Part shown: positions 1 to 56,348 of the stretch, piece by piece
Position numbering within the stretch: the first letter of the stretch is position 1
Layout: every line of letters starts with the position of its first letter
Assembly (NCBI RefSeq): GCF_058153355.1
Contig: NZ_JBLWLY010000002.1
Length of the DNA stretch: 64,000 bases
Direction: 5' to 3' (one strand)
From: a plasmid
The notes under the pieces: model-generated
Database searches by the model: none
What the model saw: the letters and a program-made list of their open reading frames with translations, nothing else
Told to the model about the DNA's origin: nothing
Program-made: the position numbers and the translations under genes

Positions 1-159
1 TAAGGACAATAGTTTATCCAAACTGCCAAGCCCCTTTATTATAAGTACTAAATAAGCGTTCTAAACCGCCCCGAGTAGGCGGCCTGACGGCTGCGGCTTG
101 TCATGGCCTGTGATTACCGTTATAAAAACAGACAATATCATTGTCTTTCAGGCGGTTAT

Positions 160-525
160 ATGGCCCGTTCAGCTAAACCACGCAAACGAAAACCTGCACC
201 TCAAAGAAGCAAACTCCTCCGCTATGTCGTGAAACTTCACGAAGATGATTTTTTTGACGAAGAAGAAGCTGAGGTTCTGCGCTTTGATAATTTTGACGAT
301 GCCGTTGAGTGTTGCGCAGACCTGAATATTCCGTTCTTTGTGGATGCCGGAAACAAAAAACTGGTCTTCTGGTTTGTACGTGTTGATGACGAAGGGTATC
401 CGGAAATTGCCCGCTGCACGGAGCGGGAATTTGCGACAATTCCTGCCGGTATCAGCGCCGACGGCATGTATTGCCCTGAATGCGGTACGGTTCACTGGCC
501 GGATGGCGTTATTCCGCCTTTCTGA
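160..525 (+). CDS. hypothetical protein with acidic central region and C-terminal CPECG motif
   Basis: ORF 103..525 in track; internal ATG at 160 lies just after palindrome gacaatatcattgtc; no family recognised. Confidence 0.45.
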   Translation: MARSAKPRKRKPAPQRSKLLRYVVKLHEDDFFDEEEAEVLRFDNFDDAVECCADLNIPFFVDAGNKKLVFWFVRVDDEGYPEIARCTEREFATIPAGISADGMYCPECGTVHWPDGVIPPF

Positions 526-847
526 TGCTTCCCCGTTTTGCCGATATTTTTCAGCAGGGAAACCGATGGCTTAACTGGCTGGAGAAGCAGCCGGTGCAGA
601 TGAGCCGCCTGGAACATTATGCCGGTCAGGATGAAATTGGCCTGCGTTACAACAGCCACCGGACAAAACGAGAAGAAAACCTTGTGATGAGTGGCGACGA
701 GTTTATGGAAAGGTTCTCCTGGCATGTGGCGGATAAGGGGTTCCGGATGGTGATACGGGGTCCTGAGTCCGGTGAAGCGGCGATTACTGGAAGATGTGGT
801 GTACGCCATAACGGAGACAGTGAGAAAAACGGCGAGGCAAATCACAA

Positions 848-1200
848 GGAGAGGGATGTATCAGCAGTGACTGAAGGTTGACCCGCTGAAGTGCGAGCTG
901 TGCGGAGGTCAGATGCGGTTTACGGGGCTGAAGAGGGGTTACCGTCTGGCAGAGCAGGTTATGATGCATGAGCCGCTGGCACGAATACGGTGGTGCGGCT
1001 GAGAGTCGCAGAGGGGAAGTTGCGTCCATGTTGAGGGGAACGGAGCAAAAAACCATCAGAGATACATTGAATCAATCAATGTAAGCAATATTAAGTGTCT
1101 ATACCGATTACTTGATGATCAGGTTGTGTTGAATAAATGCGCATTCTTCGGTGCTTTTTTAATCTTTTGGGGATTTAAATTCCTATCGATGGACATGAAT
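848..1200. repeat. about 350-bp IS-derived segment, second copy at 31512..31860
   Basis: near-identical sequence read at both loci (gagagggatgtatcagcagtgactgaagg...); different flanks at each copy. Confidence 0.7.
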
Positions 1201-1768
1201 GCAGGCTATATAAGAGCAGCGCGCATCCACTTACCCAATGCGGTTGAGAAAATAGCCTTCGATCGCTTTCATGTGGCGAAACAACCGGGTGAGGTGGTGG
1301 ATAAAACCCGCCAGAATGAACATCCGCATCTTCCTGTTGAAAGTCGTCGTCAGGCAAAGGGAACTCGCTTCCTGTGGCAGCACAGCGATAAATGGATGAC
1401 CGAATCCAGGCAGGAAAAGCTGATATGGCTGCGTGCGCAGATGAAGCTGACGAGCCTGTGCTGGGAAAGAACTGGCAAAGGATATCTGGAGCAGACCATG
1501 GAGCGAGGAAAGACGCAACGACTGGCAGAGATGGCTGTCGCTGGCGGCCAACAGTGACGTCCCCATGATGAAGAATGTGGCTAAAACGATAGGGAAAAGG
1601 TTGTACGGTATCCTGAACGCCATGCGCCATGGCGTATCAAACGGAAATGCGGAAGCACTGAACAGCAAGATCAGGCTGCTGAGAATAAAAGCCAAGGGAT
1701 ACCGCAACCGGGAGCGCTTTAAGCTGGGAGTGATGTTCCACTATGGGAAACTGAATATGGCGTTCTAA
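1126..1768 (+). pseudogene. ISL3-family transposase, fragmented by frameshifts
   Basis: ORFs 1126..1557 and 1565..1768 carry ISL3-like motifs (FDRFHV, C-terminal KGYRNRERF) but are split and lack an intact N-terminus. Confidence 0.55.
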
Positions 1769-1861
1769 GCCTTCCCACCATGATCGGGGAAGACCCAGAT
1801 ATGAACAGGCACATTCAGAGTTACTTTAAAGAGCTTACTGAACGTTTGAGGTGTTAGAGCC

Positions 1862-4475: not shown

Positions 4476-4686
4476 GTAAGCGGCTCGCCAGAACCGTATT
4501 GATATTTACTGAGAGCTCAGATCAACTTTCCAGGGCAACAGATCGCGTACCCGGTTTGCCGGCCAGTCCTGGATATGTTCAATGACGTAACGCAGCCACT
4601 TTTCTGGCTCCACATTGTTCAGACGGCATGTGCCGATCAGCGAGTACAACACCGCAGCATGTTCACCACCGCTGTCAGAACCCGCG

Positions 4687-6511
4687 AGTCGAGTCAGCCG
4701 GAGAGAATTTCACTCCCCGGCTGCTCACGGAACCGTACGTGACACTCTCGCGTCATACGGCTCTTGATCACTCATTTGATGCACGTAGTAAATACCAGTG
4801 AACAAATAGCTTCGGATACTCCTTCCTTACCAGCGTCAGCTTTCGCTGAGCCTTCCGGTTCGAAAGTCTGTATTTAGACTGCATCCACTTGAGCAGACGT
4901 GACTGCATTGCACTCCACAGTCGATAGTTGAAATTTCTGGACCAGAACTTTCCGTAGTACTCGATCCAGCCTCTCACTATCGCATTGTAGCGCCTCGCAA
5001 AATCCAGCAAACTCTCAGCTGTTGAGCGATGTATACGCCACTTCTTGATTGTTTCTGTTATTTTGCGCATTGCTGCATTTGACGCACCCGGCATGCATTT
5101 TCGGTACAGTTCGCCTTTGAAATTCTTCAGCGTACGCACTTTGAAGTCATATCCGAGAAAGGTGAAACTCGTTGCGACGTTTCTCCTTTTAAACGTGTCA
5201 ATGTAGGCGATATTCGTTTTCCCTGCATTCAGGACCAGCCCGACTTCCGAGAAGCGCTCCGATAACCTGTTCTTCAGCCTTGTTGCATCACTCATTCGTG
5301 AACAATGTACTACAATATCGTCAGCGTACCTCTCAAACGGTACCCCCCGATATTCTCTTTCCATCCACAAATCAAATGCATAGTGAAGGAACAAGTTAGC
5401 AAGTAGTGGACTAATGACCCCGCCCTGCGGAGTGCCTCGTGTTCGGGTTATTAATTCTCCATTTTCACAACTCTGCATTGGCGCTTCCATCCAGCGTCGA
5501 CAGTACAGGATGACCCATTTAGGCATCCCGTGGTGTTCCAGAGCTTTGAGCACCAGATCATGTCTCACATGGTCGAAAAACGCACTGATGTCCACTTCCA
5601 GTATCCAGCTATAACGCCAGCACCGGATGGCACATTGTTTCAGAGCGTCATGAGCTGATTTGCCTGGTCGGTAACCATATGAATCAGCATGGAAAATCGG
5701 GTCAAGCTTTTCTTCCATGAAAAGTTTTATCGCTCCCTGAGCAATTCGATCGGATACTGTTGGGATCCCCAGAATGCGTTCCTTGCCATTCGACTTCGGG
5801 ATCCGTTTTTCCAGCACTGGTGGCGGAAACCATGTTCCCGAACATAGCCGGTTCCAGATCTTGTATAGATTGCCATCACGTTGCTGGTCGAACATTTTCA
5901 AAGTCTGCCCGTCGCATCCGGGGGCTCCCTTGTTGCGACGCACATCCAGATATGATGCCCAGACCAGTGCTTTTGGTATTTCAAATGATTTTCGTTGCAT
6001 CAGTTACGTCATCCCCTTTTGGGTTGTGTCTTCTGCAATGAATGTGATCCCCATCCCTTCGCTCCAGACCCATTACAGATCTTTCATCACTACTACGAAT
6101 GGGTCCGCCCCTGTTTCCCGATACGTGCCGGAAACAGGTTCTCACGTTCCCTGAGATGGTCTGGCCCGGGATCCTGCTGCCTTCACACCGGATGCCGCGC
6201 AGTCAGTAAGCAGGTGTCTTCTGCGCTTATCAGGGGACGGCTGTACGGCCCCATTTTGACATCATCTAAGATTTCGATGCTTCATCGGACAGTTTACTTT
6301 CGTTCAGCTTCCCGAACCCCACGTGACAGTAGATCTCTGCCTTTTCCCGAGTCGCTCACCACCTCATTCCTTAGAATGAAGCAGCACCGGGTCGTTTGGT
6401 CAGTGCTCCTGTAAACCCTGACCGGAGGGCCCACCTCCACCCACCTCAGAGCATGGATAACTTATGCTGCAATTTTCACATTGTTGCCATAAGTACTCCT
6501 TCGTGACACAC
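4687..6511 (-). mobile_element. bacterial group II intron, copy 1
   Basis: 5' GTGTG and 3' ...AC termini; domain V-like hairpin gagccgtatgacgcg...cacgtacggttc after the IEP; interrupts tnpC between codons for GRKNWL and FAGSDSG. Confidence 0.8.
4768..6000 (-). CDS. group II intron-encoded reverse transcriptase/maturase (no endonuclease domain)
   Basis: 410 aa with RT motifs including YADD (RYADDIVV) and a maturase-like C-terminus. Confidence 0.85.
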   Translation of the reverse strand: MQRKSFEIPKALVWASYLDVRRNKGAPGCDGQTLKMFDQQRDGNLYKIWNRLCSGTWFPPPVLEKRIPKSNGKERILGIPTVSDRIAQGAIKLFMEEKLDPIFHADSYGYRPGKSAHDALKQCAIRCWRYSWILEVDISAFFDHVRHDLVLKALEHHGMPKWVILYCRRWMEAPMQSCENGELITRTRGTPQGGVISPLLANLFLHYAFDLWMEREYRGVPFERYADDIVVHCSRMSDATRLKNRLSERFSEVGLVLNAGKTNIAYIDTFKRRNVATSFTFLGYDFKVRTLKNFKGELYRKCMPGASNAAMRKITETIKKWRIHRSTAESLLDFARRYNAIVRGWIEYYGKFWSRNFNYRLWSAMQSRLLKWMQSKYRLSNRKAQRKLTLVRKEYPKLFVHWYLLRASNE

Positions 6512-7943
6512 AGAGCCAGTTTTTCCGGCCTACGGCCACTCCCCGTAAGGCGTTCTCTGCGATGTTGTTGTCGATTTCCACCCAGCCATTACTGCAGTAC
6601 ACGTTCAGTGCATCCCACTGTTTCAGCAGGTATGCGAACGCTTTTGCCGTGTCCGAGTGACGCGACAGTGTTTTCATCTGTTGCTGTATCCAGTCATACA
6701 GTGACTGCATCAGTGGCGCGGCTCTGGCTTTTCTTGCCGCCAGACGCTGTTCTGCTGAACAGCCCCGGACCTCTGCCTCGATGGCATACAGTTCACCGAT
6801 ACGCTGCAGGGCTTCCGTGGTGATGTCGGTGGGCACTCTTGCATGCACATCGTGGATTTTTCTCCGGGCATGAGCCATACATGCGGCTTCCGTTATTCTG
6901 CCGGATTCGTACAACGCCCGGTAACCACCGTAAGCATCGGCCTGAAGCACTCCGCTGTAACCGGCCAGATGATTCTGTGGATGGATACCTTTCCGGTCCG
7001 GGCTGTACGCGAACCAGACCGCCGGAGGCATTTCCGAACCGGCATTCCTGTCATCCCGGACATACGTCCAGATATATCCTGTTTTCGCCTTCTTCCTGCT
7101 CGGTGCCAGCACTTTTACTGGTGTGTCATCAGTGTGAACCTTGCGGGTGTTCATCACATAACGGTACAGGGCATCATTCAGCGGAGTCATTAACTGGCAG
7201 CACGCGTCAACCCAGTTGGAGAGTAACGTACGGCTCAGTTCGACCCCCTGACGGGCAAAGATTTCACTCTGACGATACAGTGGCAGGTGTTCGCAGTATT
7301 TTCCCGTTAACACGCGGGCAAGTAACCCCGGGCCCGCGATACCACGCTCTATCGGACGGGACGGTGCCGGAGCTTCAACGATGCAGTCACATTTTGTACA
7401 GGCTTTTTTTACCCGTTCTGTGCGGATCACTTTCAGAGCGCTGCTCACCAGTTCCAGTTGTTCTGCGCTGACTTCCCCCAGATAATCCAGCTCACCGCCA
7501 CACTCCGGGCAACAGCTTTCTTCTGGCTCCAGGCGATTTATTTCGCGGGGCAGATGCTCCGGTAACGGGCGACGATGACGAGACTGTCGTAACTGGCGGG
7601 GAACCCGGAACTCCACCTTGCAGGAGTTTGCACTGACAGTTGTCTGAGTAGATAGAGACGGAGTAAGAGCCGCCACCGGTTCTTTCTGCTCATCCGGCGT
7701 TATCTCCACAGGTAATAATTCAACGCCAGCGTCAGAAGGGGTTGTTACCGGAAGACGCCGTGATATACGCCCTTCGTTTTGCCAGAGTCTGAGCCATTTG
7801 AAAATAACATTATCATTAACGCCATTTTCTCGTGCAATCTGGGCCACACAAGCTCCGGGTTGTGATGCCAGTTCAACCATACGAAGTTTGAATTCATTCG
7901 AATGCTTTTTACGAGGTTCTTTTCGCCAGTCCTGTAATTCCAT
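6512..7943 (-). pseudogene. IS66 orfA-tnpC in-frame fusion, interrupted at 3' end by the intron
   Basis: N-terminus matches orfA of copy at 25452, then jumps at [19 protein letters not shown] into the middle of tnpC; tnpB absent; downstream tnpC exon at 4506..4686. Confidence 0.7.
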
Positions 7944-10973: not shown

Positions 10974-11048
10974 ATGCCCGGAAAAGTTCAAGACTTCTTT
11001 CTGTGCTCACTCCTTCTGCGCATTGTAAGTGCAGGATGGTGTGACTAA
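10974..11048 (+). CDS. tap: Tap/RepA6 leader peptide
   Basis: 24-aa [27 protein letters not shown]; stop overlaps the GTG start of repA1. Confidence 0.75.
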
Positions 11049-11898
11049 TCTTCAACAAACTTATTACCGCCAGGTAAAGAACCCGAATCCGGTGTTCACA
11101 CCCCGTGAAGGTGCCCGGACGCTTCCGTTCTGCGGGAAACTGATGGAAAAGGCGGTGGGCTTCACCTCCCGTTTTGATTTCGCCATTCATGTGGCACATG
11201 CCCGTTCGCTTGGTCTGCGTCGGCGCATGCCACCGGTACTACGTCGCCGGGCCATTGATGCGCTGCTGCAGGGGCTGTGTTTCCACTATGACCCGCTGGC
11301 CAACCGCGTTCAGTGCTCCATCACCACGCTGGCCATTGAGTGCGGACTGGCGACGGAGTCTGATGCCGGAGTACTCTCCATCACCCGAGCCACCCGTGCC
11401 CTGACCTCCCTGGCTGAGCTGGGGCTGATTACCTACCAGACGGAATATGACCCGCTTATCGGGTGCTACATTCCGACCGATATCACGTTCACACCAGCAC
11501 TGTTTGCCGCTCTCGATGTGTCTGAGGTGGCGGTGGCTTCCGCACGCCGCAGTCGTGTGGAATGGGAAAACAGACAGCGCAAGAAGCAGGGACTGGATAC
11601 CCTGGGTATGGATGAACTGATGGCGAAAGCCTGGCGTTTTGTGCGTGAGCGTTTCCGCAGTTACCAGACAGAGCTTAAGTCCCGTGGAATGAAGCGTGCC
11701 CGTGCGCGTCGTGATGCGGACAGGCAGCGTCAGGATATTGTCACCCTGGTGAAACGGCAACTGACGCGTGAAATCTCGGAAGGGCGCTTCACTGCCAGTC
11801 GTGAGGTGGTAAAACGTGAAGTGGAGCGTCGTGTGAAGGAGCGCATGATTCTGTCACGTAACCGTAATTACAGCCGGCTGGCCACAGCCTCCCCCTGA
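11041..11898 (+). CDS. repA1: RepA1 replication initiator (RepFIIA)
   Basis: 285 codons from GTG at 11041; [19 protein letters not shown] and later sequence match IncFII RepA1. Confidence 0.9.
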
Positions 11899-13801: not shown

Positions 13802-14029
13802 ATGCTGAACGTCTTCCGTTCACGGTACTGCTGGACGATGTGGCTGGGTGCGCTGATAACGTCGTTGTTGTTCGTCGCCGCGCACAGCCAGTATCAGAAC
13901 CTGCTGACCCTGGCAGAACTGTTCCTGGTGGGGGTGATTACATCAGCGGCCAGGATCAGAAGTGGTGGCCTGCTGCTGCCGGTATTGCTGCATATGGAAG
14001 CAACCGCGCTGGGTTTACTGTTTGGTTGA
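13802..14029 (+). pseudogene. CPBP/Abi-family intramembrane protease C-terminal fragment
   Basis: 75-aa ORF; family call from memory of the CPBP C-terminal region; a second copy of the same fragment is at 17049..17196. Confidence 0.4.
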
Positions 14030-14121
14030 CAGTTATATTTTTATTAAACATTGCGCGTTAAAGCCTGGTGTGTTTTTTTAGTGGATGTTATATTTAAATA
14101 TAACTTTTATGGAGGTGAAGA

Positions 14122-14379
14122 ATGCATACCACCCGACTGAAGAAGGTTGGCGGCTCAGTTATGCTGACCGTCCCACCGGCACTGCTGAACGCGCTGTCTC
14201 TGGGTACAGATAATGAAGTTGGCATGGTCATTGATAATGGCCGGCTGATTGTTGAGCCGCACAGACGCCAGCAATATTCACTGGCTGAGCTACTGGCACA
14301 GTGTGATCCGAATGCTGAAATATCAGCTGAAGAACGAGAATGGCTGGATGCACCGGCGACTGGTCAGGAGGAAATCTGA
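14122..14379 (+). CDS. pemI: PemI antitoxin, copy 1
   Basis: 85 aa MHTTRLKKVGGSVMLTVPPALL..., PemI/MazE-like. Confidence 0.85.
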   Translation: MHTTRLKKVGGSVMLTVPPALLNALSLGTDNEVGMVIDNGRLIVEPHRRQQYSLAELLAQCDPNAEISAEEREWLDAPATGQEEI

Positions 14380-14380
14380 C

Positions 14381-14713
14381 GTGGAAAGAGGGGAAATCTG
14401 GCTTGTCTCGCTTGATCCTACCGCAGGTCATGAGCAGCAGGGAACGCGGCCGGTGCTGATTGTCACACCGGCGGCCTTTAATCGCGTGACCCGTCTGCCT
14501 GTTGTTGTGCCCGTAACCAGCGGAGGCAATTTTGCCCGCACTGCCGGCTTTGCGGTGTCGTTGGATGGTGTTGGCATACGTACCACAGGTGTTGTGCGTT
14601 GCGATCAACCCCGGACAATTGATATGAAAGCCCGGGGCGGAAAACGACTCGAACGGGTTCCGGAGGCTATCATGAACGAAGTTCTGGGCCGCCTGTCCAC
14701 TATTCTGACTTGA
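14381..14713 (+). CDS. pemK: PemK toxin, copy 1 (GTG start)
   Basis: ERGEIWLVSLDPTAGHEQQGTRPVLIV..., PemK/MazF family; ORF 14249..14713 in track. Confidence 0.85.
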   Translation: MERGEIWLVSLDPTAGHEQQGTRPVLIVTPAAFNRVTRLPVVVPVTSGGNFARTAGFAVSLDGVGIRTTGVVRCDQPRTIDMKARGGKRLERVPEAIMNEVLGRLSTILT

Positions 14714-14978
14714 ACATGGGGGGGTGCCCCTATTAAGTTGTCAAGCATGTTATGACCCCTGCGGGGTATAAAAAGTCCCGTCGCGCATCATGGCGAACAG
14801 AACGTCGCAGCGTCGTCTCGCCAGGGCGATAAGCGCCTGATTGTGTCGTTTTCCCTGACTCATTTTGCGGGTGTAGTAAGCCCTGGAGAGCGGATCCCTG
14901 AGCGCGGCGAAGGCCGACTGTCAACGCCACGATTTTTAACCGTTATTTGCCATTTTCATGCCCGCTAAGATACTTTCG

Positions 14979-16948
<1,970 letters not shown>

Positions 16949-17048: not shown

Positions 17049-17196
17049 ACACAGCCAGTATCAGAACCTGCTGACACTGGCAGAACTGTTCCTGGTGGGG
17101 GTGATTACATCAGCGGCCAGGATCAGAAGTGGTGGCCTGCTGCTGCCGGTATTGCTGCATATGGAAGCAACCACGCTGGGTTTACTGTTTGGTTGA
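17049..17196 (+). pseudogene. CPBP-family protease C-terminal fragment, copy 2, cut by IS21 end
   Basis: same sequence as 13877..14029 beginning exactly at the IS21 terminus. Confidence 0.4.
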
Positions 17197-17288
17197 AAGT
17201 TATATTTTTATTAAACATTGAGCGTTAAAGCCTGGTGTGTTTTTTTAGTGGATGTTATATTTAAATATAACTTTTATGGAGGTGAAGA

Positions 17289-17546
17289 ATGCATACCACC
17301 CGACTGAAGAAGGTTGGTGGCTCTGTTATGCTGACCGTCCCACCGGCACTGCTGAATGCGCTGTCTCTGGGTACAGATAATGAAGTTGGCATAGTCATTG
17401 ATAATGGCCGGCTGATTGTTGAGCCGCACAGACGCCCGCAATATTCACTGGCTGAGCTACTGGCACAGTGTGATCCGAATGCTGAAATATCAGCTAAAGA
17501 ACGAGAATGGCTGGATGCACCGGCGACTGGTCAGGAGGAAATCTGA
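17289..17546 (+). CDS. pemI: PemI antitoxin, copy 2
   Basis: 85 aa; three substitutions relative to copy 1. Confidence 0.85.
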   Translation: MHTTRLKKVGGSVMLTVPPALLNALSLGTDNEVGIVIDNGRLIVEPHRRPQYSLAELLAQCDPNAEISAKEREWLDAPATGQEEI

Positions 17547-17547
17547 C

Positions 17548-17880
17548 ATGGAAAGAGGGGAAATCTGGCTTGTCTCGCTTGATCCTACCGCAGGTCATGA
17601 GCAGCAGGGAACGCGGCCGGTGCTGATTGTCACACCGGCGGCCTTTAATCGCGTGACCCGCCTGCCTGTTGTTGTGCCCGTAACCAGCGGAGGCAATTTT
17701 GCCCGCACTGCCGGCTTTGCGGTGTCGTTGGATGGTGTTGGCATACGTACCACAGGTGTTGTGCGTTGCGATCAACCCCGGACAATTGATATGAAAGCCC
17801 GGGGCGGAAAACGACTCGAACGGGTTCCAGAGACTATCATGAACGAAGTTCTTGGCCGTCTGTCCACTATTCTAACTTGA
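17548..17880 (+). CDS. pemK: PemK toxin, copy 2 (ATG start)
   Basis: MERGEIWLVSLDPTAG...; ORF 17416..17880 in track. Confidence 0.85.
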   Translation: MERGEIWLVSLDPTAGHEQQGTRPVLIVTPAAFNRVTRLPVVVPVTSGGNFARTAGFAVSLDGVGIRTTGVVRCDQPRTIDMKARGGKRLERVPETIMNEVLGRLSTILT

Positions 17881-18184
17881 ACATGGGGTTTGAGGGACAA
17901 CCGGACGAAAACGTTCGATTTAGGGCACTAAAACCGCTGCTGTTCCCTCATTCAGTGACTGCCCCAGGTTTTTTTCATGCTCTCCAAGATAGGTGTTTCT
18001 GGGCTCTGTTTGGGAAACGTAATCCTATCACACATTTACACCACTGAATTAGATTTCGATTGTGGAGTAATATCTTTAGTAAATAAATTTAGTCTTTCTT
18101 TTTCAGTTGAGAAAATATATCTCTTGGCTTGGGTTGCATTTTTCTTACTAATTAAGTCTGATATATGTTGTGGAGTATTTATTG

Positions 18185-26248: not shown

Positions 26249-27840
26249 ATGAATCAAAAATACCTCATTCGCATTGCAGAACTGGAATGCCAGCTCCGTC
26301 AGAAAGACCAGCAACTGAGTCTGGTTGAAGAGACGGAGGCCTTCCTGCGCTCTGCACTGGCCCGCGCCGAAGAAAAGATCGAAGAAGATGAACGGGAAAT
26401 AGAACATCTGCGGGCTCAGATAGAAAAACTGCGCCGGATGCTGTTCGGTACCCGTTCTGAAAAACTGCGTCGTGAAGTTGAACAGGCTGAGGCCCTGCTG
26501 AAACAACGCGAACAGGACAGTGATCGTTACAGTGGGCGGGAAGACGATCCGCAGGTTCCCCGCCAGTTGCGACAGTCTCGTCATCGTCGCCCGTTACCGG
26601 AGCATCTGCCCCGCGAAATAAATCGCCTGGAGCCAGAAGAAAGCTGTTGCCCGGAGTGTGGCGGTGAGCTGGATTATCTGGGGGAAGTCAGCGCAGAACA
26701 ACTGGAACTGGTGAGCAGCGCTCTGAAAGTGATCCGCACAGAACGGGTAAAAAAAGCCTGTACAAAATGTGACTGCATCGTTGAAGCACCGGCACCATCC
26801 CGTCCGATAGAGCGTGGTATCGCGGGCCCGGGGTTACTTGCCCGCGTGTTAACGGGAAAATACTGCGAACACCTGCCACTGTATCGTCAGAGTGAAATTT
26901 TTGCCCGTCAGGGTGTCGAACTGAGCCGTGCATTACTCTCCAACTGGGTTGACGCGAGCTGCCAGTTAATGACGTCGCTGAATGATGCCCTGTACCGTTA
27001 TGTGATGAACAGCCGCAAAGTTCACACTGATGACACACCAGTAAAAGTGCTGGCACCGGGCAGGAAGAAGGCGAAAACAGGATATATCTGGACGTATGTC
27101 CGGGATGACAGGAATGCCGGTTCGCCAGAGCCTCCGGCGGTCTGGTTCGCCTACTCACCGGACCATCAGGGTAAACATCCGGAGCAGCACCTTAGTCCCT
27201 TCCGGGGTATCCTGCAGGCAGATGCGTTTAATGGTTACGATCGGCTGTTCAGTGCCGAACGAGAAGGCGGCGCGTTGACGGAAGCAGGATGCTGGGCTCA
27301 TGCGCGGCGCAAAGTCCACGATGTATATATCAGTACCAAAAGCGCGACAGCGGAAGAAGCACTGAAACTAATCGGTGAGCTGTACGCCATCGAGCACGAA
27401 ATACGCGGGTTGCCGGTGTCTGAACGCCTGGCGGTCAGGCAAATGCAGAGTAAACCGCTACTGACTTCCCTGTATAAGCTGATGCAGAGAAAGAACACAC
27501 GTTATCGAAAAAATGCCGTCTGAGAGATGCGTTCCGGTATATCAGGAAGCACTGGGTTGTGTTGTGCAATTTCAGTGATGATGGTCTGGCTGAGGCGGAT
27601 AATAATGCCGCGGAAAGAGCGCTTCGTGCAGTCTGTCTCGGAAAGAAAAACTTTATGTTCTTCGGCAGCGATCACGGTGGAGAGCGTGGTGCGCTACTGT
27701 ACGGGCTGACCGGCACCTGCCGACTGAACGGTATCGATCCGGAAGCGTATCTGCGCCATATCCTGAGCGTACTGCCGGAATGGCCTTCCAACCGTGTTGA
27801 CGAACTCCTGCCATGGAACGTAGCACTCACCAATAAATAA
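26249..27840 (+). pseudogene. IS66 TnpC transposase, frameshifted near 27520
   Basis: ORF 26249..27523 continues in another frame as ORF 27559..27840. Confidence 0.7.
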
Positions 27841-28086
27841 GCGTCAATACGGTGCTCCGTTGACGCTTACGGTGACGGGCTGTGCCTCCTGACCAAACGG
27901 CTGGAGCGTGGGCGTCAGCCCGTGATGGCAAAGTGTTCCTTCGGACACGGCAAAAGCGTTCGCATACCTGCTGAAACAGTGGGTATGCACTGAACGTGTA
28001 CTGCAGTAATGGCTGGGTGGAAATCGACAACAACATCGCAGAGAACGCCTTACGGGGAGTGGCCGTAGGCCGGAAAAACTGGCTCT

Positions 28087-29910
28087 GTGTGTCACGAAGG
28101 AGTACTTATGGCAACAATGTGAAAATTGCAGCATAAGTTATCCATGCTCTGAGGTGGGTGGAGGTGGGCCCTCCGGTCAGGGTTTACAGGAGCACTGACC
28201 AAACGACCCGGTGCTGCTTCATTCTAAGGAATGAGGTGGTGAGCGACTCGGGAAAAGGCAGAGATCTACTGTCACGTGGGGTTCGGGAAGCTGAACGAAA
28301 GTAAACTGTCCGATGAAGCATCGAAATCTTAGATGATGTCAAAATGGGGCCGTACAGCCGTCCCCTGATAAGCGCAGAAGACACCTGCTTACTGACTGCG
28401 CGGCATCCGGTGTGAAGGCAGCAGGATCCCGGGCCAGACCATCTCAGGGAACGTGAGAACCTGTTTCCGGCACGTATCGGGAAACAGGGGCGGACCCATT
28501 CGTAGTAGTGATGAAAGATCTGTAATGGGTCTGGAGCGAAGGGATGGGGATCACATTCATTGCAGAAGACACAACCCAAAAGGGGATGACGTAACTGATG
28601 CAACGAAAATCATTTGAAATACCAAAAGCACTGGTCTGGGCATCATATCTGGATGTGCGTCGCAACAAGGGAGCCCCCGGATGCGACGGGCAGACTTTGA
28701 AAATGTTCGACCAGCAACGTGATGGCAATCTATACAAGATCTGGAACCGGCTATGTTCGGGAACATGGTTTCCGCCACCAGTGCTGGAAAAACGGATCCC
28801 GAAGTCGAATGGCAAGGAACGCATTCTGGGGATCCCAACAGTATCCGATCGAATTGCTCAGGGAGCGATAAAACTTTTCATGGAAGAAAAGCTTGACCCG
28901 ATTTTCCATGCTGATTCATATGGTTACCGACCAGGCAAATCAGCTCATGACGCTCTGAAACAATGTGCCATCCGGTGCTGGCGTTATAGCTGGATACTGG
29001 AAGTGGACATCAGTGCGTTTTTCGACCATGTGAGACATGATCTGGTGCTCAAAGCTCTGGAACACCACGGGATGCCTAAATGGGTCATCCTGTACTGTCG
29101 ACGCTGGATGGAAGCGCCAATGCAGAGTTGTGAAAATGGAGAATTAATAACCCGAACACGAGGCACTCCGCAGGGCGGGGTCATTAGTCCACTACTTGCT
29201 AACTTGTTCCTTCACTATGCATTTGATTTGTGGATGGAAAGAGAATATCGGGGGGTACCGTTTGAGAGGTACGCTGACGATATTGTAGTACATTGTTCAC
29301 GAATGAGTGATGCAACAAGGCTGAAGAACAGGTTATCGGAGCGCTTCTCGGAAGTCGGGCTGGTCCTGAATGCAGGGAAAACGAATATCGCCTACATTGA
29401 CACGTTTAAAAGGAGAAACGTCGCAACGAGTTTCACCTTTCTCGGATATGACTTCAAAGTGCGTACGCTGAAGAATTTCAAAGGCGAACTGTACCGAAAA
29501 TGCATGCCGGGTGCGTCAAATGCAGCAATGCGCAAAATAACAGAAACAATCAAGAAGTGGCGTATACATCGCTCAACAGCTGAGAGTTTGCTGGATTTTG
29601 CGAGGCGCTACAATGCGATAGTGAGAGGCTGGATCGAGTACTACGGAAAGTTCTGGTCCAGAAATTTCAACTATCGACTGTGGAGTGCAATGCAGTCACG
29701 TCTGCTCAAGTGGATGCAGTCTAAATACAGACTTTCGAACCGGAAGGCTCAGCGAAAGCTGACGCTGGTAAGGAAGGAGTATCCGAAGCTATTTGTTCAC
29801 TGGTATTTACTACGTGCATCAAATGAGTGATCAAGAGCCGTATGACGCGAGAGTGTCACGTACGGTTCCGTGAGCAGCCGGGGAGTGAAATTCTCTCCGG
29901 CTGACTCGAC
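28087..29910 (+). mobile_element. bacterial group II intron, copy 2
   Basis: same sequence as copy 1 in opposite orientation; begins gtgtg after ...aaaaactggctct and ends ...gactcgac before tcgcgggttctgac. Confidence 0.8.
28598..29830 (+). CDS. group II intron-encoded reverse transcriptase/maturase
   Basis: 410 aa, identical to ORF 4768..6000. Confidence 0.85.
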   Translation: MQRKSFEIPKALVWASYLDVRRNKGAPGCDGQTLKMFDQQRDGNLYKIWNRLCSGTWFPPPVLEKRIPKSNGKERILGIPTVSDRIAQGAIKLFMEEKLDPIFHADSYGYRPGKSAHDALKQCAIRCWRYSWILEVDISAFFDHVRHDLVLKALEHHGMPKWVILYCRRWMEAPMQSCENGELITRTRGTPQGGVISPLLANLFLHYAFDLWMEREYRGVPFERYADDIVVHCSRMSDATRLKNRLSERFSEVGLVLNAGKTNIAYIDTFKRRNVATSFTFLGYDFKVRTLKNFKGELYRKCMPGASNAAMRKITETIKKWRIHRSTAESLLDFARRYNAIVRGWIEYYGKFWSRNFNYRLWSAMQSRLLKWMQSKYRLSNRKAQRKLTLVRKEYPKLFVHWYLLRASNE

Positions 29911-30156
29911 TCGCGGGTTCTGACAGCGGTGGTGAACATGCTGCGGTGTTGTACTCGCTGATCGGCACATGCCGTCTGAACAATGTGGAACCAGAAAAAT
30001 GGCTGCGTTACGTCATTGAGCATATCCAGGACTGGCCGGCAAACCGGGTACGTGATCTGTTGCCCTGGAAAGTTGATCTGAGCTCTCAGTAAATATCAAT
30101 ACGGTTCTGACGAGCCGTTTACTCAGAAAGAGAGCGATACGCTACAGCTGGAGCTG

Positions 30157-42915: not shown

Positions 42916-43102
42916 TGTCACCAATTAGGAGGACTTGCCGGGCCGCGTTGCAAGGATGAGCCCGCATTACGATTATTTCGTGCTCGATGGCGTACAGCTC
43001 ACCGATTAGTTTCAGTGCTTCTTCCGCTGTCGCGCTTTTGGTACTGATATATACATCGTGGACTTTGCGCCGCGCATGAGCCCAGCATCCTGCTTCCGTC
43101 AA
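42863..43102 (-). pseudogene. IS66 TnpC internal fragment
   Basis: 79-aa ORF matching [42 protein letters not shown] of copy B. Confidence 0.6.
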
Positions 43103-43144
43103 CGCGCCGCCTTCGTAAGCGGCTCGCCAGAACCGTATTGATAT

Positions 43145-44716
43145 TTACTGAGAGCTCAGATCAACTTTCCAGGGCAACAGATCGCGTACCCGGTTTGCCG
43201 GCCAGTCCTGGATATGTTCAATGACGTAACGCAGCCACTTTTCTGGCTCCACATTGTTCAGACGGCATGTGCCGATCAGCGAGTACAACACCGCAGCATG
43301 TTCACCACCGCTGTCAGAACCCGCGAAGAGCCAGTTTTTCCGGCCTACGGCCACTCCCCGTAAGGCGTTCTCTGCGATGTTGTTGTCGATTTCCACCCAG
43401 CCATTACTGCAGTACACGTTCAGTGCATCCCACTGTTTCAGCAGGTATGCGAACGCTTTTGCCGTGTCCGAGTGACGCGACAGTGTTTTCATCTGTTGCT
43501 GTATCCAGTCATACAGTGACTGCATCAGTGGCGCGGCTCTGGCTTTTCTTGCCGCCAGACGCTGTTCTGCTGAACAGCCCCGGACCTCTGCCTCGATGGC
43601 ATACAGTTCACCGATACGCTGCAGGGCTTCCGTGGTGATGTCGGTGGGCACTCTTGCATGCACATCGTGGATTTTTCTCCGGGCATGAGCCATACATGCG
43701 GCTTCCGTTATTCTGCCGGATTCGTACAACGCCCGGTAACCACCGTAAGCATCGGCCTGAAGCACTCCGCTGTAACCGGCCAGATGATTCTGTGGATGGA
43801 TACCTTTCCGGTCCGGGCTGTACGCGAACCAGACCGCCGGAGGCATTTCCGAACCGGCGTTACGGTCATCACGAACGTAGACCCACAGCCGGGCAGTCCT
43901 TGTTTTACCGCTGCCCGGCTCCTGGACCGGAACGGGGATATCATCGGCATGGACTTTACCGGGCATCAGCACATACTGGCGCAGGATGTCATACAGCGGT
44001 TCCAGCAGTTCAGCAACAGCACCTGTCCAGCGCCCCAGTGTGGCACGGCTCAGCTCCACGCCCTGACGACGGTATATTTCTGACTGGCGGTATAACGGCA
44101 GATGGTCTGCATATTTTCCAGCGACAACATGGGCCAGAAGCCCCGCTCCGGCATAACTGCGTGCAATGGGTTTTGAAGGCACCGGAGCCTGCACGATATG
44201 GTCGCACCGGCAACAGGCCAGTTTCGGACGTTGTGTTTCGATAACCTTAAAGGCGCTGCTGATAAGCTCCAGTTGCTCTGACACATCACATCCCAGAGAA
44301 CTGAGTTCGCCACCACAGGCCGGGCAGCATTCCTCTTCCGGACGGATGACCCGGGTTTCACGGGGAAGTGAGGCAGGTAACGGTTTACGGGCTGAAGACT
44401 GGCGCAGGGGAGATGGCAGTACCGGGTCATATTGCTCACCCAGCGTTTCCGCCATTTCTTCCTGAAGAGCGCTGATTCGCTCCTGTGCTTCCTGTATCTG
44501 CCGTTCGGTTTTTGCACGAAGTTTTTCTGAGCTTTTACCGAACTGCATGCGCTGCAGTTTTGCAACCAGCGCCTTCAGCCGGTTGATTTCGGAAGCATAA
44601 GCCGCCACCCGCTGTGAGAGCAGGCGGTTGTATTTCGCCATCTGGCGGATGGTGTCCTGTTGCGTCTGCAACAGTGCCCGCAGGCGGGCATTCTCATGAG
44701 CAAGTGAGGTGTCCAT
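43145..44716 (-). CDS. IS66 TnpC transposase
   Basis: 523 aa, intact. Confidence 0.85.
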
Positions 44717-46639: not shown

Positions 46640-46827
46640 TACAGGGGCAGGCGGTTGAGGCCGCCTGTCAGCCCGCGCGAAAACCCCTGGCAGGCTGGCG
46701 CCTGCCGGAAGGGAAGCGGGCCACGCTGGCGCGTCGCCCGTTACCCTTCCCGTCTGTGATGTGTCTGACTCAGGAGTGTTTCTTTCTTATGTTATGGAAC
46801 TGTTCCTGATGTTGTTGTTCCTTTATC

Positions 46828-47295
46828 TGCTGCTCTGATTCTGACTACTGCAGTGTTGTTCTGTCTGCCGGGCGCACCTTCGGCTCCCGGCTGCCTGGCG
46901 GCATCTGGTCGTCAGGCCCGACTCCGACAGGCAGCTGCTGGCGCACCTGCCAGTCTCCGCCGAACCCGCTGGCGCGGTTTCGGGCTGTCGCTACGGTCCG
47001 ATGCGTGAAAACCCCGGGCTTGCAGCGACCGTTCCGGTCGCGCCGCCTCTGTCGCGCCGTGGCCTGCGCTCCTGGCATCCCGGCAAAAGGCCGCCGGGAT
47101 GTAAGGCGCAACGCCGTTTCGCAAACCGCGCTTCACGTCGTTGCGGCGGGTCCCTGCCCGTTGTTGTGTCCGGTGCCATTCACCTGTTTAAGCCCCTTGC
47201 GGCGAAGGTTCTCAAACAGGTGATGGTGAATACCGGAGGGAACAAAAGGCCGGTCCCCGCAAAACGTCAAAACCGCGGCTCCCGAAACTCAACAG
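46828..47295 (+). repeat. leading-region repeat upstream of ssb (Frpo/ssi-like single-strand promoter candidate), copy 1
   Basis: GC-rich structured sequence repeated at 51998..52640; the ORFs predicted inside are identical between copies and look spurious. Confidence 0.55.
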
Positions 47296-50183: not shown

Positions 50184-50237
50184 TGAACAACCACACCGCC
50201 CCGCCGGAGACGGGGCGGCAGCAAGGGAGATACTGTG

Positions 50238-51290
50238 ATGAAAACTGAACTGACCCTGAATGTATTACAGACCATGAGTGCACAGGAATATGAAGATATC
50301 CGGGCTGCCGGAAGTGATGAACGCCGTGAGCTGACACACGCCGTGATGCGGGAACTGGATGCGCCGGACAACTGGACGATGAATGGCGAGTACGGCAGCG
50401 AGTTCGGCGGCTTTTTCCCCGTCCAGGTCCGTTTCACGCCTGCCCACGAACGTTTTCACCTGGCGTTATGTTCACCGGGCGATGTCTCTCAGGTCTGGGT
50501 GCTGGTTCTGGTGAATGCCGGTGGTGAGCCGTTTGCGGTGGTTCAGGTGCAGCGGCGGTTTGCACCGGAAGCTGTCAGCCATTCACTGGCACTGGTTCCC
50601 CTCAGCGCAGAGCAACAGGCCGCATGGCGGGCGCTGGCAGAGACGGAAAAACGCCGCCATCAGGGAAACTTGCTGGCGGAATATCCGTATGCGGGGGCGT
50701 TTTTCCGCTGTCTGAACGGAAGCCGCAGGATATCGCTGTCTGACCTGCGATTTTTCATGCCGTCCCTGACCGCAGAAGAACTGCACGGCAACCGTCTTCA
50801 GTGGCTGTATGCCATCGATGTGCTGATTGAAACACAGGGCGAGGTCTGCCTCCTTCCCCTTCCCGGTGATGCAGCAGAGCGGTTGTTTCCGTCGGTGCGG
50901 TTCCGTGTCAGGGAGCGCAGTCGCCACAAATCCGCACTGGTCATGCAGAAGTACAGCCGTCAGCAGGCACGGGAGGCAGAGCAGAAAGCCCGTGCGTACC
51001 AGGCACTGGTTGCTCAGGCTGAAATCGAACTGGCGTTCCATTCACCGGAAACAGTCGGAAGCTGGCATGCCCGCTGGAGTGACCGGGTGGCAGAGCATGA
51101 CCTGGAAACCCTGTTCTGGCAGTGGGGTGAGCGTTTTCCGTCACTGGCCGGGATGGAACGCTGGCAGTGGCAGGATATGCCATTCTGGCAGGTTATCGCG
51201 GAAGCCAGTCTGGCAGCAAGAGAGGTCGGTCACGCTGTCCGTGAGATGGAGCGGTGGATGGTGCCGAACAAACTCCGGGAGGCAGCGTAA
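50238..51290 (+). CDS. psiB: PsiB-PsiA in-frame fusion protein
   Basis: N-terminal about 119 aa PsiB-like ([13 protein letters not shown]...), remainder PsiA-like to the end. Confidence 0.7.
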
Positions 51291-51721: not shown

Positions 51722-51997
51722 CAACCTGGAGGCGGGCGTAGGCCCGCCTTTTCAGGGCTGATGCTGGTCTGACTGCACTGAAGCGCCTTTATAAAGGGGC
51801 TGCTGGTTCGCCGGTGGCCCCTTTCTCCTTGCTGGCATTGTGCGGGCATGAACAACCAGGCTGCCAGGAAGGCCGTTTCCCTTCGGGAACGGGGAAGAAC
51901 GCGCGCCTGCGGCGCCCGTTCTTCTCCTCCGTCTTCTCTGTTTATGGCCAGTTGTCAGAAATGACATTACCTTTCCCGTGATTATTCTCTTTTTCTT

Positions 51998-52640
51998 CCT
52001 GCTCTGATTCTGACTACTGCAGTGTTGTCCTGTCTGCCGGGCGCACCTTCGGCTCCCGGCTGCCTGGCGGCATCCGGTCGTCAGGCCCGACTCCGACAGG
52101 CAGCTGCTGGCGCACCTGCCAGTCTCCGCCGAACCCGCTGGCGCGGTTTCGGGCTGTCGCTACGGTCCGATGCGTGAAAACCCCGGGCTTGCAGCGACCG
52201 TTCCGGTCGCGCCGCCTCTGTCGCGCCGTGGCCTGCGCTCCTGGCATCCCGGCAAAAGGCCGCCGGGATGTAAGGCGCAACGCCGTTTCGCAAACCGCGC
52301 TTCACGTCGTTGCGGCGGGTCCCTGCCCGTTGTTGTGTCCGGTGCCATTCACCTGTTTAAGCCCCTGTCGCCGGGGGCAAAGACAGCCACAACCTGCCGC
52401 ACTGACTGTCTAGGGTAAATGAACAGCCCACAAAATTTTTTACCCAAAACCCGGTAAAAAATTTTGCGTTCTGCCCCGGACAGGTGCGTCAGGCCGTGGC
52501 AGTGATGCCCCTTGCGGCGAAGGTTCTCAAACAGGTGATGGTGAATACCGGAGGGAACAAAAGGCCGGTCCCCGCAAAACGTCAAAACCGCGGCTCCCGA
52601 AACTCAACCGATGATGGGGGCTGAAAACCAGAGAGAGGAG
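51998..52640 (+). repeat. leading-region repeat, copy 2, with about 130-bp internal insertion
   Basis: same sequence as 46828..47295 plus an extra block (tgtcgccgggggcaaagacagcc...gtgatgcccc). Confidence 0.55.
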
Positions 52641-55479: not shown

Positions 55480-55670
55480 AGGGAAATAAATTTTGACTTT
55501 GTTCAAATATCAGAGTTTTTAATGGTTCAAACTGATGACAATAATCAGAATAATTAGTATATTAATTACGTGGTTAATGCCACGTTAAAATTTGAACTTG
55601 AAAATCGCCGATGCAGGGAGCTTGTCCCTCCCTGCATCGACTGTCCATAGAATCCTTTGAGGAGGTTCCT

Positions 55671-56348
55671 ATGTGTGCGATGGATACTAGAGAAAGAGCA
55701 CTCATACGTCAATCAGGCCTGCCGGAAATTATTTTATCCGCAAAATATCCAGTCTGTGTCCGCACAGAGTCTACCGTTCCCGGTGACCGGATTATCGCCG
55801 TGAACAGTCTGGATGGTGCCCTGACCAATAATGAGCAGACCGCCTCCGGCGGTGTGGTGGTTGCCACCGTCAACAAAAAGCCCTTTACGTTCATTCTGGA
55901 AACAGAACGTGGTCTGAACCTTTCCATTCAGGCCGTTCCCCGTGAAGGCGCGGGGCGTACCATTCAGCTGGTCAGTGACCTGCGCGGAACCGGAGAAGAA
56001 GCCGGTGCGTGGGAAACGTCCACGCCTTACGAATCCCTGCTTGTGACCATCAGCCAGGCCGTCCGTGGCGGAAAATTACCCGCAGGCTGGTATCAGGTCC
56101 CGGTGACAAAGGAAACCCTGCAGGCCCCGGCGGGGCTGTCTTCAGTGGCAGATGCCGTATGGACGGGGAATCATCTGAAGATGGTCCGCTTTGCCGTGGA
56201 AAATAAAACGCTGTCTGCCCTGAATATCCGGGAAAGTGACTTCTGGCAGCCGGGAACCCGTGCCGTGATGTTCAGCCAGCCTGCCAGCCAGTTACTGGCA
56301 GGTGCGCGCATGGATGTGTATGTCACCCGTGACGGGGAGGGCAACTGA
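55671..56348 (+). pseudogene. traJ'-'traK fusion left by deletion of traJ through traE
   Basis: ATG at 55671 with RBS gaggagg; first about 36 codons TraJ-like, then TraK-like sequence from [13 protein letters not shown] to the end. Confidence 0.65.

Follow-up and report, generated by a model that had tools for sequence, protein, structure and literature searches.

The question raised by this locus is how one group II intron came to lie twice at the same site of an insertion sequence, in a stretch of plasmid that also holds two empty copies of that site. A second question is whether splicing of the intron still serves the transposase gene that it interrupts. The stretch analysed, called the window, comprises 64,000 nucleotides of contig NZ_JBLWLY010000002.1 (NCBI RefSeq assembly GCF_058153355.1). 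Besides RepA and CopA, the surrounding plasmid, an IncFII plasmid related to pINV, has hok/sok, an F4-like fimbrial operon and the beginning of a tra region.

Copy B of the intron is 1824 bp long and lies at 28087..29910 on the + strand. It starts with GTGTG and ends with GAC (5' GUGUG ... GAC 3' in the RNA). Copy A, at 4688..6511 on the - strand, is the exact reverse complement of all 1824 nt, and the two copies are 100% identical. The ends follow the group II boundary rule (5' GUGYG, 3' AY), and the junctions are unambiguous when compared with the empty alleles. The initial annotation, made from the sequence alone, had reported an identical copy in opposite orientation at the same tnpC site. 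This is correct, except that the copy starts at 4688 and not at 4687.

Two Rfam models match both copies. RF01999 (group-II-D1D4-2) scores 91.9 bits against a gathering score of 36 and marks the conserved domain I segment, located at 28160..28276 (+) in copy B and at 6322..6438 in copy A. RF00029, which covers domain V/VI, scores 57.1 bits (gathering score 40) at 29833..29910 and 4688..4765, respectively. Folding of the intron 3' end (29800..29910) generated two hairpins with a z-score of -5.3. The first, at 29835..29868 (+), is domain V, a 34-nt hairpin that contains the AGC triad and a 2-nt bulge and is capped by a GAGA loop. Domain VI forms the second, at 29871..29908 (+), and its bulged nucleotide is the A at 29904, located 7 nt before the 3' splice site. 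An intron of about 1.82 kb with a GTGTG start and a domain V-like hairpin had been proposed at the outset and is confirmed by the Rfam matches and the fold. The RNA folding suggested there as a check recovered the domain V and VI hairpins with the bulged A, and domain I was recognized by its Rfam match.

The intron-encoded protein (IEP) is specified by a 410-aa ORF at 28598..29830 (+) in copy B and at 4768..6000 in copy A. It contains the Pfam domains RVT_1 (E 5e-41) and GIIM (E 2e-14) and no other Pfam domain, which agrees with its first description as a 410-aa RT/maturase lacking an endonuclease domain. The RT domain spans aa 67-285, with YADD present, and the maturase domain X spans aa 311-385. 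The protein stops 25 aa past X and has no D/En domain. It is 47% identical to the 419-aa IEP of RmInt1 over 405 aa, end to end. Identity to the IEPs of common Klebsiella plasmid introns is only about 33%. In many RefSeq records the ltrA gene of this intron is labelled a pseudogene with a 'missing N-terminus', despite the open 410-aa frame.

The intron is E.c.I3, a known element whose class and IS target are already published. This identity, and the fact that two perfect sites in the window are empty, had been missed by the initial annotation. Copy B is 99.0% identical over positions 1..1824 to an intron of E. coli 536 (NC_008253, 4007952-4009775), which is listed as E.c.I3-2b in Table S3 and assigned to class D in Table S2 of Leclercq & Cordaux 2012 (PMC3522654). 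The name E.c.I3 is applied there to introns with >90% nucleotide identity to the reference (PMC3522654, Table S2). It extends to the window through the 536 copy (99.0%), itself listed as 99% identical to the reference (PMC3522654). The sources cited for E.c.I3 in the same paper are the Zimmerly group II intron database and Dai & Zimmerly (2002, RNA 8:1294), and its specific target is given as IS679 (Leclercq & Cordaux 2012, PMC3522654).

Class D introns are those without a D/En region (PMC3035460). The IEP described here has no DNA-binding/endonuclease region, and both the IEP and domain I align with RmInt1. We place the intron in class D, with RNA of predicted subclass IIB3, by pairwise comparison and the published class.

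Some part of the intron is carried by 168/5426 complete E. coli genomes, and in 55 a copy spans at least 80% of the intron. No intron 100% identical to that of the window was found in the plasmid and E. coli collections, where the best full-length match was 99.2%. Neither an identical plasmid nor an identical exon-intron combination was found in these collections. A 1789-bp fragment lacking the first ~37 nt has been reported on Shigella virulence plasmids (PMC3522654). The pINV copies of Shigella and EIEC (E.c.I3-tr2) are 99.7% identical, start at intron nt 37, and are identical (100%) to the window from intron nt 37 to nt 314. They are 5'-truncated and frameshifted. By these matches, the lineage truncated on pINV is present in the window in a full-length version with an intact ORF. 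The window was also searched for additional pieces of E.c.I3 comparable to the 120-620 bp relics of pINV, and none was found besides the two full copies.

Both copies are flanked by AAAAACTGGCTCT on the 5' side (the 5' flank is also written as GGAAAAACTGGCTCT) and by TCGCGGGTTC on the 3' side. Two uninterrupted tnpC genes, at 43145..44716 and 61201..62772 (both -), hold the junction sequence contiguously, and the flanks are identical to both genes for 60 nt to either side of the junction (120 nt in all). The first of these genes encodes 523 aa and has its empty homing site between 43327 and 43326. In the second intact gene the empty homing site lies between 61383 and 61382. Comparison with the gene at 43145..44716, also suggested at the outset, defined the exon junctions, and when the intron is removed the tnpC exons rejoin into a continuous frame. 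The intron does interrupt tnpC as first proposed, not between codons but inside a Phe codon, which is split after its first base (T, then TC). It is in sense orientation, 212 bp from the right end of the IS.

The host carries DDE_Tnp_IS66 and related domains and is therefore an IS66-family element. Its nearest relatives are labelled 'ISCro1 family' in RefSeq, and it is referred to here as IS679-like. The window was scanned for sites with up to 4 mismatches from GAAAAACTGGCTCTTC, and only the four known sites were recovered. Each of the corresponding sites in the remaining IS66-family remnants (27645 and 31319) has 4 differences.

Both occupied tnpC genes were defective before any splicing. The host of copy B consists of a 146-bp 5' exon remnant of tnpC (27941..28086, +), with a frameshifting 1-nt insertion at 27984, and a 212-bp 3' end. 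The 3' exon extends to the IS right end (29911..30122, +), includes the terminal inverted repeat at 30095..30122, and departs from the other three IS copies by 6 substitutions. The 5' exon of copy A (6512..7943, -) is part of a chimeric ORF (6462..7943), in which an HTH_Tnp_1 (TnpA-like) N-terminus is followed by tnpC of a second IS66 member, then by IS679-like tnpC beginning at ~7055. The middle tnpC part is 96.6% identical to 26554..27164 using megablast, and 87% identical over a longer alignment, 26554..27394, using blastn. The leucine-zipper region persists only as a remnant (marginal LZ_Tnp_IS66 match), and between the tnpA-like and tnpC-like parts there is no sequence homologous to tnpB. 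The 3' exon of copy A extends to the IS right end (4476..4687, -; IR 4476..4503) and is identical to the intact IS copies at 212/212 positions. The empty sites are identical to the exons of copy A over 358 nt, of which 146 are 5' exon and 212 are 3' exon.

EBS1 could be placed because it covaries with the exon across 13 further E. coli loci that span the 5' junction. It is ACAGCCG, intron nt 268-274 (28354..28360, +; 6238..6244 in copy A), in the loop of the hairpin GGGG-CCGUACAGCCGU-CCCC. The loop, CCGU-A[C/G]AGCCG-U, covaries with exon position -2 in 12/13 of the other loci. AGAGCC is paired with GGCTCT in 5 loci and ACAGCC with GGCTGT in 7 (GGATGT in L013), and 1 locus is mismatched. EBS1 of the window intron is of the ACAGCC form, yet each of the window's four IS sites reads GGCTCT; IBS1 of copy B, for example, is TGGCTCT (28080..28086, +). 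Intron nt 269 (28355, C) thus faces a C at exon -2 (28085), a C×C mismatch that leaves 6/7 EBS1 positions paired. The mismatch is common to both resident copies and both empty sites.

In all 13 of the other E. coli loci the 5' junction follows the same tnpC motif, GAAAAA[C/T]TGG[C/A]T[C/G/T]T, and the 3' junction is followed by TC in 7/7 other loci where it was read. The same junction is used in divergent IS66-family tnpC genes, namely those of the FFGSDHGG type (L005, L010 and L011) and a third variant (L014). Together with the published specificity of E.c.I3 for IS679 (PMC3522654), this constancy upholds the original proposal of site-specific retrohoming into IS66 tnpC.

EBS3 and δ-δ' were placed by homology to RmInt1. 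In the S. meliloti pSymB intron, C227, G266, G329, EBS2 (AUGAA) and the +1 C fit the published RmInt1 numbering. By alignment to C227/G266, δ' is A231 (28317, +) and its partner δ is U267 (28353), a compensatory change from the G-C pair of RmInt1 to U-A here. EBS3, aligned to G329, is A329 (28415, +) and pairs with IBS3, T+1 (29911). This is again a compensatory change, with G329/C+1 in RmInt1 and A329/T+1 in E.c.I3. Exon positions -25..-1 were scanned exhaustively against intron 1-520 for complementarity, and no convincing EBS2-IBS2 pairing was found. The loop homologous to EBS2 of RmInt1 is shorter by 3 nt and lacks complementarity to exon -8..-20. An 8-nt perfect match between intron 378-385 and exon -18..-11 was rejected as EBS2. 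It is presumed to belong to the domain II stem, we estimate that ~0.1 such matches would arise by chance, and the L005 site does not have it. A loop at intron 93-107 that resembles an EBS was rejected on its position and its lack of covariation.

We consider it very probable that E.c.I3 is present here as a mobile class D intron (RNA subclass IIB3, RmInt1 group), that it lies twice at its known homing site in an IS679-like tnpC, and that it was moved by RmInt1-like retrohoming. Between the two occupied 2.18-kb loci there are 7 differences in 359 nt of exon and 0 in 1824 nt of intron. One is an indel, at -103, and the others are substitutions, at +80, +89, +110, +143, +200 and +208, so the exons are identical from -102 to +79. 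Under uniform divergence the probability that 7/7 differences fall in exon is ~3e-6. Since the differences are confined to the exons, the intron copies are much younger than the divergence of their hosts, and the pattern points to a recent spread of the intron.

In the proposed mechanism the intron would be transcribed together with the host IS, and the 410-aa RT/maturase would assist its excision as a lariat. The resulting RNP would read the DNA site via EBS1-IBS1 (exon -7..-1) and EBS3-IBS3 (+1), and the intron RNA would then reverse-splice into the sense strand. Class D introns are known to reverse-splice into single-stranded DNA at replication forks, using the nascent lagging strand as primer (PMC3035460), and invasion by RmInt1 reaches 36.6% in the lagging orientation versus 0.53% in the leading one (PMC4075523). 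Because the IEP of E.c.I3 has no endonuclease, its cDNA would most likely be primed by the nascent DNA strand at the fork, as in RmInt1. Splicing, RNP formation and mobility are in this sense properties that we infer for E.c.I3.

The replication fork of the plasmid presumably leaves oriR downstream of repA (11029..11898, +) and heads in the + direction. Replication of R1-type IncFII plasmids is unidirectional (PMC5883639). With a fork moving in the + direction, and assuming no second replicon outside the window, the + strand would be the lagging-strand template. On this assumption copy B occupies the sole site in the favoured orientation, while the orientation of copy A and of the two empty sites is the disfavoured one.

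The consequences of the mismatch can be gauged from RmInt1. A G-2C exon change retains 86.5% of excision (PMC3123198), and in target-site selections each splice-site-proximal IBS1 position was paired in at least 92% of insertions (PMC4075523). These data suggest that the -2 mismatch should reduce homing but not abolish it. The two intact IS copies are probably unoccupied on account of the -2 mismatch, their presumed leading-strand orientation, and/or poor donor expression. Mismatch, orientation and weak expression from dead host genes could in this way have produced the occupancy of 2/4 sites. We tentatively suggest that the EBS1 alleles AGAGCC and ACAGCC are matched to GGCTCT and GGCTGT, respectively, and that the window may record a cross-type invasion of two GGCTCT sites by an ACAGCC intron, despite the C×C mismatch, in which two identical sites on the presumed leading-strand template were left empty.

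Two identical empty sites within 35 kb of a donor also raise the possibility that the copies are inactive relics, which came with the plasmid and no longer move or splice in this host. The mere 146-bp 5' exon remnant kept by copy B points the same way, as do the 5'-truncated, frameshifted pINV relatives and the many unsaturated genomes and inactivated copies reported by Leclercq & Cordaux (PMC3522654). The intron itself, however, is intact in its GUGUG/AC ends, domain V, domain VI branch A, δ-δ' and EBS3, and in an ORF with YADD. The zero substitutions between the copies argue for very recent copying. The mismatch between EBS1 and IBS1 at -2 in both copies could be a further sign of inactivity, but the equivalent change in RmInt1 keeps 86.5% of excision (PMC3123198). 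We regard inactivity as rather unlikely.

The second copy may instead have come from an event at the DNA level. IS66 copies may have exchanged sequence by homologous recombination or gene conversion, or an occupied IS may have undergone inverted segmental duplication. Recombined IS66-family fragments make up a mosaic in this region, as illustrated by the three-part chimera that hosts copy A, and an EBS1/IBS1 mismatch would disfavour reverse splicing. Plain duplication followed by divergence is rejected by the location of 7/7 differences in the flanks (P ~3e-6). The exon identity from -102 to +79 does fit transfer of the intron with short flanks, and a short conversion tract centred on the intron is possible. 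That divergent IS66-family tnpC genes elsewhere carry the intron at this same junction shows true retrohoming by the intron family, and we regard a DNA-level origin as unlikely.

It is highly improbable that the intron is a functional part of IS66 expression whose splicing restores active TnpC, since, although it is sense to tnpC and the joined exons are in frame, both host genes were defective before splicing, the intact and presumably active IS copies are the intron-less ones, and exon joining by RmInt1 in its natural IS context came to only 0.07% (PMC3123198), where splicing is described as 'almost completely abolished' (PMC3035460). The initial annotation held that splicing would be needed to restore tnpC. 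The frame is indeed restored, but with host genes that are already defective splicing could not restore a normal transposase. Because both host transposase genes are defective, the intron acts here as a selfish retroelement nested in dead IS copies and not as a gene-rescuing intron.

The intron of the window can be compared with several named systems. E.c.I3-2b of strain 536 resembles it in its 1824 bp length, class D assignment and IS679/IS66-family tnpC host. The window differs in having two copies beside two free sites, whereas no free IS679 was found in genomes with full-length E.c.I3 in the 2012 survey (PMC3522654), and in an EBS1 allele that is unmatched to its own exon. RmInt1 (Sr.me.I1, in ISRm2011-2), from Sinorhizobium meliloti and the model for class D/IIB3, also has no D/En domain, interrupts an IS transposase gene, and contains the same Rfam domain I motif (RF01999, 113.7 bits). 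Its EBS1 (267-273), δ (266/227) and EBS3 (329) are at positions homologous to those of E.c.I3. The two differ in target, which is the IS630 family for RmInt1 and the IS66 family for E.c.I3. E.c.I3 is also ~60 nt shorter upstream of the ORF, has a smaller domain II, and, unlike RmInt1, has no recognisable EBS2-IBS2 pairing.

E.c.I4 and S.f.I1 are likewise endonuclease-less introns of E. coli and Shigella that home into IS transposase genes. They belong to class A, reside in the IS3-family hosts IS629 and IS911, and are ~2.27 kb long (PMC3522654, Table S3). Ll.LtrB and EcI5 share EBS/IBS target recognition and RT/maturase-assisted splicing with E.c.I3, but they possess a D/En domain and their cDNA is primed by bottom-strand cleavage.

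Little is at stake in the identification as such, since this element has been published together with its class and its IS target. Models of intron spread and extinction do gain a clean example from nature, with two identical full-length copies whose ORFs are intact and two empty sites of identical sequence on one replicon. Its EBS1/IBS1 mismatch is conspicuous given the covariation among other strains. If the tentative reading of cross-type invasion is true, the window would record, on an IncFII plasmid in nature, how an intron without an endonuclease retrohomed with a strand bias and with tolerance of a mismatch, and its intron would be the intact progenitor of the truncated E.c.I3 relic on all Shigella/EIEC pINV plasmids.

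Two intact IS66-family copies in the window carry an empty homing site for the class D group II intron E.c.I3. These sites lie at 43326/43327 in the minus-strand tnpC at 43145..44716, and at 61382/61383 in the minus-strand tnpC at 61201..62772. Sequence comparison within the window found both empty sites identical to the occupied sites over 60 nt on each side of the junction, and the empty-site tnpC genes share 358 identical nt with the exons flanking copy A, the minus-strand intron copy. Over 1969 bp the two intact IS copies share 99.8% identity; they diverge upstream, in the tnpA region.

Other IS remnants and repeats were found in the window. Directly next to the right end of the IS at 43 kb, 141 bp (42974..43114) match 27263..27403, a part of the other IS66-family tnpC (26249..27523), with 100% identity in inverted orientation. 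A 62-bp IS right end also stands alone, again inverted, at 63650..63711. Both features point to nested insertion and IS-mediated rearrangement. An 839-bp direct repeat (13883..14721 and 17050..17888, 98% identity) brackets an IS21-type istA/istB pair (14979..16948, minus strand). A ∼410-bp ORF occurs in a diverged tandem duplication (77%) at 59245..60060.

In the leading region, ParB-like, psi and hok-sok genes sit between the arms of a 385-bp direct repeat (46815..47197 and 51982..52366, 98%). A single 351-aa ORF (50235..51290) contains the domains of both PsiB and PsiA, which are normally two separate genes. At 55568..56348, Rfam matches to the traJ 5' UTR (128 bits) and FinP (101 bits) run straight into an ORF that has both the N- and the C-terminal domain of TraK; TraB-, TraP- and TraV-like ORFs lie downstream. 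Because the traJ 5' UTR/FinP abuts the TraK ORF, traJ through traE appear to have been deleted, with fusion of the traJ leader to traK.

Pairing of the intron with its 5' exon was examined at EBS1 and EBS2. At EBS1, nt 269 faces exon position −2 as a C×C mismatch both in copy B, the plus-strand copy (28355/28085), and in copy A (6243/6513). The two positions are complementary in 12/13 other E. coli loci, where the pair occurs as two covarying alleles. The loop homologous to EBS2 of RmInt1, the Sinorhizobium meliloti model intron, lies at 28322..28336 in copy B (intron nt ∼236–250) and is 3 nt shorter than in RmInt1. Complementarity between this loop and the 5' exon was sought, none was found, and no EBS2-IBS2 pairing was assigned.

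PGAP annotates the intron-encoded ltrA as a pseudogene 'missing N-terminus' in five RefSeq E. coli loci (L001 and L003-L006). In all five the 410-aa frame is open throughout, and the call looks like an annotation artefact. The ORF is truly broken in L002 and L008.

In four other E. coli loci (L005, L010, L011 and L014), E.c.I3 sits at the corresponding position of IS66-family tnpC genes that are more divergent. The 3' exon at the L005 insertion is TCTTCGGCTCGGATCAT, and the 5' exon at L014 ends in ...GGAAAAATTGGCTTT. The target range of E.c.I3 therefore extends beyond a single IS.
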